Source: Octopus vulgaris
Taxonomy: Eukaryota
Length of the DNA stretch: 64,000 bases
NCBI GenBank assembly: GCA_951406725.2
Contig: OX597839.1
Span: 18,290,001 to 18,354,000, forward strand
Direction: 5' to 3'
Shown here: piece after piece, positions 6,930 to 21,072 of the stretch
How the letters are laid out: each line of letters opens with the position of its first letter
Numbering within the stretch: the stretch's first letter is position 1
Translations under genes and position numbers: made by a program
Notes under the pieces: model-generated
Databases searched by the model: none
Told to the model about the DNA's origin: nothing
What the model saw: only the letters and a program-made list of their open reading frames with translations

Positions 6930-7784
6930 TCAAACGAGACAAGGAAATATCTCTGGCAACAAGCAGTCATCCATGGGATCCATGTCATTAAAAGGGATTG
7001 TCATCAACTGATCCTGGTAAGGGGACCCAGGATTGCTAGGCTCACTATTTATACCAGAGTCACTGGCAGAGTCACTGAATTGATCCATATAAGTTGTTTC
7101 CATGGGAATTTTCATTTCGCTTTCTGTAGAGTCACAGGATTTCCTCAGTTTTGTATCAAGCATAAGGGAGGTGATGGGGTTGTTTTCTTCAGCGAGATCA
7201 GAAGTATCAAGATGCTCTAAATCTGCCAGTTGTAGAATATCATATGTTTCTTTGCCTTCTCGGCTGCCAACCGACTCTTGCAGGATATCTTGCAGCAAAG
7301 CCAGGGGGTCAAAATCATAACTACCATCATCGCTGTCGCTGCTGCTGTTGTCGTTATCAACACAGTTGTCAGTGATGTCATCAATGTCTTTGATATCATC
7401 ATATTCTTGTGTAGCAATGTTAGAAATGTCAGGAACAACTACAGTGGAGCTGACTGTTGGCACTATTGTTTCCTCATCTACAAACACACCTTCATCAGCA
7501 GCATCACATGGCAAGATATCACAGACTTCCATCAGGGACTTTGGTCCACTGTCAGAAGCTGGAGACAGAGACGGGGAAGGCTTGACATAGAAATGCTCGG
7601 ATTTTATAAGTTCATTGAGGGAGTCCAGTTGTGTTGTTGCGGTCCCCACCATGGAATTGGAATCCTCTTTTGCGAGAAGCTCAGCAGCTCCAAAACACGA
7701 AGAATCTGTAACTGATTGTGAAGAGATTGGGTTTTTAGATTCTGAATTGCAGACTTCATCCAGAAATTTCCACAACTTGCTAGG
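6930..7784 (-). CDS. XBP1: XBP1 last exon, spliced (XBP1s) frame: acidic transactivation tail
   Basis: Acceptor ttttccAG|CCT at 7785/7784. In frame only after removal of the 20-nt intron. Contains LNELIKSEHFYVKP (cf. XBP1s ELIRFDHIYTKP) and ends LPEIFPCLV* (cf. ELFPQLISV*). Total XBP1s length 594 aa. Confidence 0.92.
   Translation of the reverse strand, partial: PSKLWKFLDEVCNSESKNPISSQSVTDSSCFGAAELLAKEDSNSMVGTATTQLDSLNELIKSEHFYVKPSPSLSPASDSGPKSLMEVCDILPCDAADEGVFVDEETIVPTVSSTVVVPDISNIATQEYDDIKDIDDITDNCVDNDNSSSDSDDGSYDFDPLALLQDILQESVGSREGKETYDILQLADLEHLDTSDLAEENNPITSLMLDTKLRKSCDSTESEMKIPMETTYMDQFSDSASDSGINSEPSNPGSPYQDQLMTIPFNDMDPMDDCLLPEIFPCLV
7604..7784 (-). CDS. XBP1: XBP1 last exon, unspliced (XBP1u) frame overlapping the XBP1s frame
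   Basis: Exon 2 AA|C joins to read MMNLASCGNFWMKS...RIPIPWWGPQQHNWTPSMNL*, resembling human XBP1u LISCWAFW and QWGRHQPSWKPLMN*. Total XBP1u length 376 aa. Confidence 0.88.
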
Positions 7785-8329
7785 CTGGAAAAAAAAAGAA
7801 AAAAAATAACAATTAAACTTAGCCAAAAGATCATTATCAGGTTATTATAGACTGTTTTAGAAATCGAAAACTAAACAATCACATCATCAAAATCTCTAAG
7901 CATGATCAATCTAAGACAATAAAGAGACATTACATTTGACAGAGTAATCAGATTGCTAAAGGGTTAATCAAGTCTTTGGAGCCTACAAAACATATCAACC
8001 CACATCAAGTGTTTAACTCACTAAAAAACATTTTTTTGCCATCATATTGAGGTCTCTTTTCTCCATGCTGGCAGGAGTTGGACAAAAACTTATTTTCAAG
8101 TAGAGTATTTTATCTCTTTCGCATTCGGATAACTCACTCAAACGTAATGCTTATTCATTCTTTAATCACATTATTTTGAATTAATCATGCATTATCTTGT
8201 ATCTAAGAGATTTTCATTATGTCATTGCTTATATTCAGAATGACACTGCAGGATAGGTGTGAGAAGCCAGATCTGACCTCTCTGAACACAAAACTGGCAG
8301 AATATTTAGGCTGGACATGGCCAGTTTAA

Positions 8330-9455
8330 CCCTCTAGCATTTAAAATGGCCACATCCGGCCCAAATATTTTACCTGTAATATGTCCCCTACCACCACGTG
8401 GCAAACAGTGTTGGTGTGTTTATATCCCTGTAACTTAGCAGTTCAGCAAAAGAGCTTGACAGAGTAAGTACTAGGCACAAAAAAATAAATCTTGGGGTCA
8501 ATTCAAGGCGGTGCCCCAGCATGGCCACAGTCAAATGACTGAAATAAGTAAAGGATGAAAGATAAAAGAAGTACTGGAATTGATTCCTTTGACTAAAACC
8601 TTTCAAAGCAGTGCCCCAGCATGGCCACAGTCCAGTATTTAAACTTGCCATATCCAACCTGCTTTTTTGATCAAACTGGCTACATCAGGCTTCTCACACC
8701 TACCCTACAATGTCACTCTAAAAATAACGACATTGAAATCTTGAAGCTATGAGATAATGCATGGTAAATTCAGCCAAGTGAAACTCTAGTTGTGGCCGAT
8801 GATGGTATCTTGTAACTGTCACCTGTGCTGATGGCACATAAAAAACACCTTTTGAGCATTGGGCCTCACAACGACAATGTGGCCAATGCCGGTGGCACAT
8901 AAAAAGCACTTTTAGAGCGTTGGGCCTCACGGACGCACGTGGTTGATGCCGGTGGCACGTAAAAAGCACCTCTTGAGTGTGGGTCTCACGGAGGCATGTG
9001 ACTGATGCCAGTGGCACATAAAAAGCACTTTTAGAGTGTTGGGCCTCACAGACGCATGTGGTTGATCCCAGTGGCACGTAAAAAGCACCTTTCAAGTGTT
9101 GGGCCTCACAAGGGCAATGACAAATGATAAAGACCTTTGGTAATATACCGTGATGGAGAAGACCCATCAAGCCAAGTGAAATTGTAGTCATGATAGATAC
9201 TGGTGTCATGCAACTGGCCCCTCTGCCGATGGGACATAAAAGCATCAATTACACTCTCAGAGTGGTTGGTGTTAGGAAGGGCATCCAGCTGTAGAAACCC
9301 TGCCAAATCAAACTGGAGGCTGGTGGTGCAGTCCATCAGCTTACCAGCCCTGGTCAAACTGTCTAACCCATGCCAGCATGGAAAACGGACGTTAAATGAT
9401 GATGATGTGAATAAATAAGCATTACATCTGACAGAGTAATCTGAATGCTTAAGGG
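8330..9455. mobile_element. piggyBac-type element with nested SINEs filling most of XBP1 intron 2
   Basis: TTAA|CCCTCTAGCATT...AATGCTTAAGGG|TTAA. Contains a SINE fragment (about 8390-8635) and a (GAT)n-tailed element with ~60-bp tandem units (about 8800-9408). Confidence 0.65.
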
Positions 9456-9495
9456 TTAAAGATTAAAAAGACAAAAGACGAAAGATTAAACTTAC

Positions 9496-9993
9496 TTCAT
9501 CATTACTGCCAAAAAGCTGCAACGTATCATCAAGTGAAACAGCATCAAAATGTGTTTCTGCGGCAGAGAAACAATTGGTGCTGCGGACCGTAGGCATTTT
9601 GATTCTGTCTTCACTGGCGATGATAAGCTTTCACTCTTGCAGAGACTACTGTTAGCAATGCTGTTGTTGTTGTTGCTGCTGTAGTTAGATGTGCTGGATG
9701 ATAATGATGATGATGATGATAATGGTGATGATGTGGATGTTGTTCTTGACGATGTCGTCGTAGTTGTTGCTGTGGACAAGTGGTCGCATTCTCCGTTATT
9801 TAACTGGCCCAACCTCTCGCGGAGCTCAGCATTTTCGCAGATCAGTGTCTTGGTCTTTTTCTGTAGCATCTGGTTCTGCTGAAGCAATTTTTTGTTTTCA
9901 GTCTGTAGTTTATCGATGGCTATTTCCATGTCAGACATCTGTGCTTTCTTCCGATCACGGGCTGTTTGGGCTGCAACTCTGTTCTTTAATTTC
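9496..9993 (-). CDS. XBP1: XBP1 coding exon 2 (bZIP basic region and leucine zipper, Ser/Thr/Asn-rich linker, IRE1 splice site)
   Basis: Acceptor tcttttAG|G at 9994/9993 completes the Arg codon and gives KLKNRVAAQTARDRKKAQMSDMEIAIDKLQTENKKLLQQNQMLQKKTKTLICENAELRERLG, the XBP1 bZIP. Donor AA|GTAAGT at 9496/9495. Confidence 0.95.
9564..9583 (-). other. XBP1: IRE1-cleaved non-spliceosomal 20-nt intron of XBP1 mRNA
   Basis: Minus strand reads GGT-CCG|CAGC-ACC ... TGTTTCT-CTG|CCGC-AGAAACA, two 7-nt CNG|CNGC loops. Intron is CAGCACCAATTGTTTCTCTG. Its excision opens the frame through to the stop at 6930. Confidence 0.92.
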
Positions 9994-10083
9994 CTAAAAG
10001 ATAAAAATATTAATTAGAAATATTGAATTTCTAAGCGTCTCAAAGAGACATGAGCGGTGGTGGAGCGATAGAGTGGTTGTATA

Positions 10084-10362
10084 ATGTCAACATAACGTGA
10101 CAGTCCCGTAAAGGGAATTACACCACCACTGTTTAGCCCTAGGAAGCATTGACGCTTCCTGTCGGCTTTGACACATTTCCTGTATCCTTATATTTGCAAA
10201 AGGGGGCCAAGCTAGTCCTAGCTGGTGAGGGTGCTTGCATCCCCCTTTGCAAATATAAGGACACAGGAAACGTGTCAAAGCTGACAGGAAGCGTTGATGC
10301 TTCCTAGGGCTATATAGCGGTGGGGTGATTCCCTTTATGGGACTGTCACGTTAAGTTGACAG
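10084..10362. mobile_element. Foldback MITE (~120-bp arms) just inside the 3' end of XBP1 intron 1
   Basis: tgtcaacataacgtgacagtccc... pairs with ...gggactgtcacgttaagttgaca; TA-flanked, ~30-nt spacer. Confidence 0.8.
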
Positions 10363-10498
10363 TATACAAAAATATTAATATTTAAAATATAATAACAATA
10401 CTTTCATATTTTTCCACAAGGGCAGCAATTTTGGAGAACAGGATAAGTTGATTACATCAACCTCAGTGTTTCACTGATACTTGACAGATATTTAACTC

Positions 10499-18263: not shown

Positions 18264-20399
18264 ATGTGTATATATATATATAAATAGATTAAGTATGTGT
18301 ATGATATATGTATTCACAGAGAGAGACAGGGGGGGGGGGGGCTATTCTATATCCGTTTCAAACAACGGCTGAAATTCAAAACCTCAGCTTCGAGTGATCA
18401 TCAAATCCGTGATCTACATGCAAACATGTGTCGGTGCATGAACAAGTGTGTGTGTGTGTGCGTGCATGTATGTATGTGTGTGTGCATTCTCCGGATACGT
18501 GTATAATTAATATATCTATATTCCGAATAATACATACACATTTATGTATGTGCCTTATACCACCATTTAACTGGTGATTCATAATACGTATATATAATGT
18601 GAGTGTTCACACGCATACATGTAGGGGAGTGAGTGTACACATGTGTTTTGTGTGAGTAACCCATTTCCTAACATCATACAAGATCAGGAAGTCACATCTG
18701 TTCAGCTGCGTCAAAAAAGCAGTCTCCACCATTTTATAACCAAACAGCTCTGTATGAGGAAAAAGGCCACGATGTTGAACAGCTGGGGGCGTGTAGCAAC
18801 GTCAGGCAAAAGATTCTTGGCATATTTCGTGATCCACCATCATTAGTTGGTTCACTCTGGTAAAAATGTAACGATCAATGGTGATTACGCTTATTTAAAA
18901 CTATATTTGTGGACGATAGGTTAAAGTTGGAGTAAAAAAAAAAAGGCAAATCTTAATATAACAATACAGTAATAGCATCGTGAATAAAGACACAAGGAGA
19001 GACATTGGTGGTTCGTGTAGGGGGTTGACTTGGCCATGAAGAAGACTAGGGACTAAAGATTAAATGGTTCATCAATTGATTAATGAATCAATTTTAATAT
19101 TTGTGTATGTATGTATATATATTAGTTCACATTGGTAAAATGTAACGATTAATCTTATTTAAAAAATCATTTGGGGACGACAGGTTTATGATGAAATAAG
19201 AAGGTGAATTTTTCTATAATACGGTAGTAATATCATAAGTATAGACAACCAAACGGCGACACATCCGTGGTTCGTGTAGGGGGTTGACTTGGCCATGAAG
19301 AAAACTAAGGACTAAAGATTAAATGGTTCATCGAATGATTAATGAATCAATTTTAATATTTGTGTATGTATGTATCAAATTTCGATGAAATGATGTTTAT
19401 CAAACTCTACTTTTTATTCATTTTAAACATTTTACAATTTAAATTTCAGTTGCCGAGGCAATGATGGATAATTTATAATATAAATGATATTTATATCGAA
19501 AGAATATCAAAGTCCATTATTGAAACGTTCTGCTATAATAGTTATTTAAATTCTTGTGTGTGTACGTGTATTAAAGTATATTACATTATTGATCCATTAC
19601 AGGTGAATATTTATATATATATATATATATACACAAACCATAAGGGTGACACAGAATTGACAAGGGAATAAATAAAATATTTTGTTGATACAGGATTAAA
19701 GAATTTCTTAACTTATTTATCAATTTGGTTAATATTTTCTAACAACATATTGTATGATAACGAAAATGATGATGACGATGATGATGATTCCAAACATGTA
19801 ACATAGCTACACCCAAATAAATACTTTGTTGTAACTGTGGGAAGTGGACCGAGTATTTTATAAATCTAAGAGAGGTGGTCGTCCTTGAAATAGTTAATGT
19901 GGCTGTATAAGAACCATCAAGGCTTTCAACGTGTCAAAAAAATAATGTCTCTCCTTCGTCACACAAACAAGATGTTTAAAAGATGAAATATGGACAAGTC
20001 TTCCCTGCGACACACACACACAAGATCAGATGTTCCTCTTTGGAGAATGAAATAGGAACTTAAACTGCGTAAATGCCTATTCCACTAACTAGGACTTCTA
20101 GGAATATCTTTCACTCACATTTTCACCCTCATATGTGTGTGTGTGTACACACCCACACATTATTATGTGATCGGAATGGAAGGATCTCCAGAATAATTAA
20201 AGGCATTTGCTCGTCACATATGGATCCTTTTGAAATATAACAGAACATACGGAGTTATTGGTTACATGTGGTAATCAATAAACCACATATCACATAAGTT
20301 TAGTGATCGATCGATCGATGATGATAGATAGATAGATAGAGAGATTGCATCATCCCTTAAAAATTAATAAAAGCCAAGACGTAAAATATTAATTTTTAC

Positions 20400-20851
20400 C
20401 TCCGTTGTATCTTCTCTTCAGGACTCAGATGTGTTAGCCTTCGTCTTTTACGAGGTGCTCCGTCACTGCCGATCGAACTGGCGTCCTCATCGTCTGCAAC
20501 AGTGGTAGATGTTAACCGGAATACGTTCATATTTTCGCTATGTGGACCCAGGACGATTTTCTTGTCTGTCTGCTGTTGCAGTTGTGTTTGTGATTGTACT
20601 TGTTGCTGTTGTTGTTTAGGCGATAGCAGGCTTGTGGTGAATAGGCCGGTCACGTTCGACTGTATTTTACAAACGTTAGGGGCTGTTTTCAGTATGGGTT
20701 TCACAGTGATCACAGATGTTGCAGGTCTGTGTTGGGCGATACCATTCGTGGCTGATGTTGCCACTATGGCAGCACGTCGAACAGTACTGCTGCCCCCGTT
20801 GGTCGTTATAATTAACGTATCGGGTTTCTGAAACTCGGCTATAGCTGTCAT
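20400..20851 (-). CDS. XBP1: X-box binding protein 1, coding exon 1 (N-terminus to start of the bZIP basic region)
   Basis: ATG at 20851 with A at -3 (the ORF-track start at 20902 is a TTG). Reads MTAIAEFQKP...GAPRKRRRLTHLSPEEKIQR(R), matching XBP1 RKRQRLTHLSPEEKALRR. Phase-2 donor AG|GTAAAA at 20400/20399. Confidence 0.95.
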
Positions 20852-20985: not shown

Positions 20986-21072
20986 AACTGAAAACTAATA
21001 AAAATAACGTAAACAAGAAGAGGAAACAGTGGTGAACAAAACGATTTGATTGGTTGCTCGGTATTGACGTCA
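20986..21072 (-). promoter_or_regulatory. Putative XBP1 core promoter: CRE palindrome, CCAAT box, Inr-like TCAGTT
   Basis: TGACGTCA at 21065-21072, CCAAT on minus at 21049-21053, TCAGTT on minus at 20986-20991, about 135 nt upstream of the ATG. The TCAG could instead be a splice acceptor. Confidence 0.5.

Follow-up and report, generated by a model that had tools for sequence, protein, structure and literature searches.

Origin of the question

The splicing of XBP1 mRNA by IRE1 is textbook knowledge, as the first-pass annotation of this DNA rightly took it to be, and the question raised by the present locus is whether a short stretch of coding exon in Octopus vulgaris is such a site and, if so, which bases would be removed and what protein would result. 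According to Peschek et al. 2015 (PMC4687415), IRE1 cuts after the G at position 3 of seven-nucleotide loops, the exons come together in an extended stem and RtcB joins them in metazoans; the loop consensus is given elsewhere as CNG/CAGN (PMC8674358), where a slash, here and below, marks the cut. The survey of bifurcated XBP1 stem-loops in the former paper covers 34 metazoan species which, as far as its account of the sampling goes, are vertebrates, insects and nematodes, with no molluscs.

The element considered here lies on the minus strand of the window, i.e. of the whole stretch of 64,000 nucleotides that was analysed, and its features are collected in Table 1. It represents, in the octopus, the twin RNA hairpin of XBP1, and IRE1 very likely excises 20 nt of it. 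That the locus forms an IRE1 splice switch, in which this removal exchanges a product of 376 residues for a predicted one of 594, is held with high confidence.

Table 1. Features of the octopus XBP1 locus, in window positions
Feature	Positions	Strand	Basis and details
XBP1 coding exon 1, start codon to basic region	20400..20851	-	Donor at 20399; joined translation equals P0087
XBP1 exon 2: remaining bZIP, Ser/Thr-rich linker, IRE1 site	9496..9993	-	Pfam bZIP_1; RNA-type contig coverage
Exon 3, coding part: spliced-frame acidic tail, 284 codons and stop	6930..7784	-	Translation; conservation
Extended bulged exon-exon stem S1 enclosing both hairpins (predicted)	9506..9642	-	Folding
Proximal basal stem S1, 5' arm	9595..9603	-	Exact complementarity; pair probabilities 0.66-1.0; covariation
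Proximal basal stem S1, 3' arm	9544..9552	-	Exact complementarity; pair probabilities; covariation
5' hairpin S2	9577..9589	-	3-bp stem 9589-9587/9579-9577, loop 9586-9580 CCG/CAGC, predicted cut 9584/9583; folding, pair probabilities, covariation, covariance-model match
3' hairpin S3	9553..9573	-	7-bp stem 9573-9567/9559-9553, loop 9566-9560 CTG/CCGC, predicted cut 9564/9563; folding, pair probabilities, covariation, covariance-model match
Predicted 20-nt unconventional intron	9564..9583	-	Cut sites; frame outcome; lengths in relatives; Argonauta junction
Hydrophobic stretch, unspliced frame, HR2-like, residues 298-316	9498..9554	-	Kyte-Doolittle 19-residue maximum 1.8
Arrest-peptide-like tail, last 15 unspliced codons, W-G-x-x-Q-x-x-W-x-P-x-M	7607..7651	-	Stop 7606-7604

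Structure of the element

The first-pass annotation had described a nine-base-pair basal stem that carries two hairpins with CNG/CNG loops, and the letters agree with it at each point: the two arms of the basal stem are exact reverse complements, both seven-nucleotide loops are present base for base, and cuts after loop position 3 take out exactly the 20 nt claimed. The excised stretch begins with CA and ends with TG, and is thus no GT-AG intron. The 5' loop fits the narrower consensus C(C/U)G CAGC, while the 3' loop has C in place of A, a substitution common to 22 of the 76 sites called in related loci (the best 80 of 319, described below). Folding, which had been proposed as a check, returns the bifurcated structure as the centroid, and the minimum-energy fold is the same structure with one extra C-G pair within the 3' loop. 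As to the basal stem, its nine exact pairs stand as described; its extent had been drawn too short, however, with bulged pairing reaching to about 9642/9506. Folded at 151 nt, the extended stem has an energy of -45.3 kcal/mol (z -2.70, with 4 of 200 shuffles equally good).

A deflationary reading is that two hairpins have fallen together by chance in a coding exon. The 60-mer folded alone gives some colour to this, being weak (z only -1.47, 20 of 200 shuffles equally good), as does an Rfam score under the cut-off (see below). Against it, a loop pair of any kind arises in only 1 of 5000 shuffles of exon 2 (and in 4 of 200 shuffles of the window), and the position, the phase and the covarying structure are the same in XBP1 relatives; coincidence is, on this evidence, vanishingly unlikely. 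A scan for paired loops on both strands of the 64-kb window finds a single site, the XBP1 one, and the 80-nt site occurs in one copy in the genome.

The 5' hairpin is the slighter of the two, consisting by itself of three pairs worth -1.1 kcal/mol. The hairpin pairs with a probability of 0.74 in place, of 0.64-0.88 when the basal arms are held single-stranded and of 0.53 when the arms are removed, at which point the core prefers another fold; the median is 0 when the arms are shuffled and free to compete (13 of 300 shuffles reach as high a value). From these four figures it appears that the basal stem probably helps the 5' hairpin by excluding competing pairings in the modelled RNA. The suggestion, made at first pass, that so short a 5' stem may depend on the basal stem therefore receives partial support in silico; set against it, 43 of the 76 sites called among the best 80 of 319 related loci lie below the octopus value of 0.74, their median being 0.67.

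Conservation and length of the predicted intron in relatives

Relatives were obtained by a metagenome-contig scan, from which the best 80 of 319 XBP1-like stretches were taken; these are mostly transcript-like and are biased to octopus-like sequences. The rule by which sites were called is blind to frame, asking for two CHG/CHG loops on stems of at least 2 pairs and 12-45 nt apart. It calls a loop pair in 76 of these best 80 of 319 loci, and in all 76 the predicted length is 2 mod 3 and the cut phase is that of the octopus. The four loci without a called pair comprise one that is already joined (L055) and three variant sites found by the covariance model described below (L065, L077 and L081). 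The former, an unrelated XBP1 contig (L055:492-563), was assembled in the spliced state with a CTG/CCGC junction.

Among the 76 sites called in the best 80 of 319 loci, the length is 20 nt in 42, 23 nt in 19, 17 nt in nine (L015, L050, L057, L058, L064 and L066-L069) and 26 nt in four, with 29 nt (L045) and a doubtful 44 nt (L062) once each; one site called at 23 nt (L026) is read as 20 nt by the covariance model. With duplicates removed, 20 nt is found in 31 of 57 distinct sites. In fly and worm the XBP1 intron is 23 nt. Since 20 nt is the commonest length in this sample, and since removal of 17 nt is reported by RT-PCR in a tapeworm (PMC12162102), the description of the octopus intron as a specially compact version fails. 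These lengths suggest, at the level of sequence, that 20 nt is the usual intron length in many invertebrates.

What does set the octopus site apart from these related contigs (L002-L081), with which it has loops and phase in common, is its 5' stem: three pairs lie at the short end, with three or fewer contiguous pairs in five of the 76 sites called among the best 80 of 319 loci and the longer 4-5 bp in 59.

Conservation of loops and stems in relatives, on which the first-pass annotation had staked its reading, was examined in an alignment of the 31 distinct 20-nt sites and the octopus window site. In these 32 sequences the loop bases C, G, C and G are invariant in both loops (eight bases), 85% of cells pair, both partners vary in 19 of 20 pairs and all three stems covary. 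None of 500 shuffles, a control that ignores kinship, scores as high, and slid controls are 34-48% paired. A covariance model, likewise among the checks proposed, was built from 50 of the 57 distinct sites with the window excluded, and it recovers the octopus site at 52.9 bits (E 4e-17; next match 8.7). The Rfam model RF04247 matches end to end at the same loops with 30.1 bits (E 4e-4), below its gathering cut-off of 41, such that the site is not a member at the Rfam threshold; this shortfall reflects the cut-off of the model, not a biological feature, and suggests that RF04247 may under-score 20-nt sites.

Proteins of molluscs point the same way. In Gigantopelta, Saccostrea, O. bimaculoides and two cephalopod-like sequences the residues around the site are spaced in keeping with 20 nt, as judged from protein only. 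Moreover, an Argonauta protein of 588 aa (P0003) passes from the bZIP through RSAAET into the same tail, which is the junction predicted by the 20-nt cut; this protein model may not rest on reads. The junction bears also on a variant of the reading in which the cut points slip between two CCGCAG repeats, removing 23 nt in the same frame to give 593 aa. The repeat is indeed present and the deletion keeps the frame. Such a slip, however, takes no account of the cleavage after loop position 3 described in PMC4687415 and would leave one alanine at the junction where the Argonauta protein has two, and it is accordingly regarded as extremely improbable.

The gene and its two reading frames

The three coding exons joined without the unconventional step encode 376 aa, identical to Octopus vulgaris CAI9741296.1 (P0087) and one residue apart from O. 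sinensis XBP1 isoform X1; the named protein matches of this product are nearly all X-box-binding protein 1. The bZIP_1 match in exon 2 is over the Pfam cut-off (E 8e-9), and the predicted intron lies 3' of the bZIP. When the 20 nt are removed the frame passes into exon 3 in phase 0 at 7784 and gives 594 aa with a conserved XBP1s tail, as the first-pass annotation had worked out, apart from exon 3 supplying 284 residues and the stop. Open over 306 codons, the spliced frame is conserved across octopods and beyond; the unspliced frame also takes in the first 178 bases of exon 3. The third frame meets a stop after 5 codons. A spliced-frame motif is common with dog XBP1s (11 of 23 residues identical, E 1e-5 pairwise), and the C-terminal end is also conserved.

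The unspliced product has features of its own. Its tail has W, G, Q, W, P and M in the spacing of human W249, G250, Q253, W256, P258 and M260, as numbered in PMC6624018, and the motif recurs in 61 of the best 80 of 319 related loci; a PDB sequence search with this tail gave 0 matches. According to PMC4138184, the hydrophobic stretch and the pausing tail bring the mRNA to IRE1 in mammals, and in fly their deletion lowers splicing. In the octopus, the hydrophobic region 2 and the C-terminal pausing motif of metazoan XBP1u are both present, with a putative function.

The 5' arm of the basal stem also contains an AUG, at 9597-9595 (minus strand), from which unspliced mRNA could be read in the spliced frame to yield the 318-aa RefSeq X2 protein. 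This AUG is found also in O. bimaculoides and one further relative, and in only 2 of the 76 other loci called among the best 80 of 319, for which reason it is treated as incidental.

Transcripts and gene models

Transcript evidence comes from 24 listed runs, none of them recorded as RNA and all consisting of assembled contigs, of which seven were examined (X1, X4, X7, X12, X14, X17 and X19). The GT-AG intron 7785-9495 is removed and 9496 is joined to 7784 in four of four runs, from which it follows that the XBP1 gene is transcribed and canonically spliced. A joint lacking the 20 nt is found in none of the seven runs examined of the 24. Assembled contigs drop rare forms and keep the major one, hence all that this absence indicates is a predominance of the unspliced mRNA, which is what unstressed material should show. 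Run X1 had a small excess of depth that was not reproduced on a second look. Positions 9496-9655 show no base differences in four runs, hence nothing here suggests that the stem is edited A-to-I in the majority of transcripts; contigs are blind to minor editing.

Because the 5' hairpin is weak, it might be supposed that cutting at the site is inefficient, or is confined to the 3' loop, and that the site serves mainly for decay of a RIDD-like kind over splicing. The 3-bp 5' stem, shorter than in 71 of the 76 relatives (best 80 of 319), the preference of the armless core for another fold and the lack of a spliced contig in the runs examined are all in keeping with this. Nevertheless, the 5' hairpin probability in context exceeds the median of the relatives, the spliced frame has been kept open and conserved, and the Argonauta protein has the junction that the 20-nt cut predicts; a site used chiefly for decay is thus judged very unlikely.

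The records of octopus XBP1 bear out the guess made at first pass that the gene might be mis-annotated, for those found represent the unspliced form (376 or 379 aa), a model of 534 aa or a tail without its head. These tails are the RefSeq X2 proteins, 318 and 312 aa long, which carry the spliced-frame tail from the basal-stem AUG without the bZIP. Among the octopus records found none is of 594 aa, the searches showing cluster representatives only, and P0003 alone of 4039 candidates is a longer protein with the spliced tail. The 534-aa O. vulgaris model (P0105, CAI9741295.1) was missed by this longer-protein search, being hidden in a cluster, and other full-length records may therefore exist.

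P0105 furnishes a competitor to IRE1 splicing, namely that the spliced-frame tail is reached, alongside or instead of IRE1, through a normal 200-nt GT-AG intron at 9813-9614 (minus strand). Removal of this stretch reproduces the 534-aa protein exactly, 200 being, like 20, equal to 2 mod 3. Yet no contig ends or is joined at 9613/9614 in four of four runs, and an X12 contig spans the entire exon 2 in register. The signals are weak besides, with a donor GTTGGG and an acceptor tract of 8 pyrimidines in 15 vs 11 and 15 in the two real introns; the conserved loops would be left unexplained; and a similar error by an automatic model is described for tapeworm XBP1 (PMC12162102). The 200-nt intron is for these reasons judged very unlikely as a source of the tail. 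Little credence is likewise given to an extension of it, in which a second, spliceosomal route would produce a 534-aa bZIP activator without IRE1. The mRNA for such a protein keeps the hairpins, so IRE1 cutting would move translation to the third frame, which is dead, and act as an inverted off-switch; no such inverted IRE1 switch was found in the literature searched.

Proposed mechanism

The preferred reading, IRE1 splicing at the twin hairpin, takes its start from a structure-forming sequence in a gene that is transcribed and canonically spliced, from two open and conserved frames and from an RtcB gene, of which five exon matches over the cut-off lie on G000:C6. Studies in human, fly and flatworm suggest by analogy that the unspliced protein, through its hydrophobic stretch and ribosome-pausing tail, would direct its mRNA to the ER membrane, where under ER stress IRE1 would cut after G3 of both seven-nucleotide loops. 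The exon ends would then re-pair into a short extended stem and eject the intron, as in other systems; in the fold of the joined octopus RNA such a stem (ES1) is predicted, with five pairs and with its tip at the junction. Ligation of the exons by RtcB would leave out 9564-9583, translation would shift from the 376-residue product to the predicted 594-residue transcription factor, and this spliced protein, again by analogy with human, fly and flatworm, would activate ER protein-folding genes.

An IRE1 gene is presumably present in the octopus. Searched over the genome at E 0.001, Pfam PF06479 has no match, nor has a seven-residue motif, both searches being insensitive to split exons, such that absence is not implied. 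With E allowed up to 10, PF06479 finds two weak places. An open stretch at L084:1492-1629 (G000:C1) is weakly like the C-terminal part of the KEN/RNase L nuclease domain (E 0.047).

Comparison with known systems

The octopus site is a real, conserved and ordinary XBP1 splice site. Molluscan 20-nt introns may, reportedly, already be listed by Hooks and Griffiths-Jones in 2011. Among the openly accessible papers searched, none on cephalopod XBP1 splicing was found. With metazoan XBP1, as described in PMC4687415 and RF04247, the octopus has in common the S1 stem, the two hairpins with seven-nucleotide loops and the G at loop position 3, together with the predicted extended stem, the frameshift into an acidic tail, and the hydrophobic stretch and pausing-type tail of the unspliced form. 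It differs from XBP1 as described there in the 3-bp 5' stem, in CCGC after the 3' cut and in its longer proteins (376 and 594 aa), and its 20-nt intron compares with 26 nt in human as given in PMC4084626. A close case is that of the flatworm Mesocestoides corti, also a lophotrochozoan, whose XBP1 has a double stem-loop and an automatic model with a wrong canonical intron; its intron is shorter, at 17 nt, and DTT-induced removal is shown there by RT-PCR (PMC12162102). Unconventional introns of 20 nt are published for fungi: that of Trichophyton rubrum hacA also lies between two small hairpins (PMC7044415), whereas hacA is the fungal HAC1 ortholog and its ligase would be of the Trl1 type, not RtcB, to go by the yeast case in PMC4687415.

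The practical value of these assignments is modest. They supply exact coordinates for an ER-stress assay in cephalopods, read as a 20-nt RT-PCR shift, and they correct the octopus XBP1 gene models, the predicted 594-aa form being missing from the records found. Mollusc sites are useful in that a 2026 scallop paper did not directly examine XBP1 splicing and relied on a mammalian antibody (PMC13362341).

Surroundings of the gene

Three further observations concern the non-coding parts of the locus. Intron 1 contains, shortly before exon 2, a long inverted repeat at 10077-10369, with arms of 129 nt, 89% complementary and 35 nt apart; it is MITE-like and a possible substrate for A-to-I editing in the pre-mRNA. 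Rfam microRNA matches nearby are below the cut-off and correspond to long inverted repeats, this one accounting for them, and were set aside. Upstream of the XBP1 start codon, at a distance of about 200 bases, 21049-21072 (minus strand) contains TGACGTCA and CCAAT, a CRE-type and a CCAAT element respectively, which could be stress-responsive promoter sites. Among the dispersed repeats of intron 2 are several imperfect direct ones, each about 60 bases long, at 8840-9110 (minus strand).
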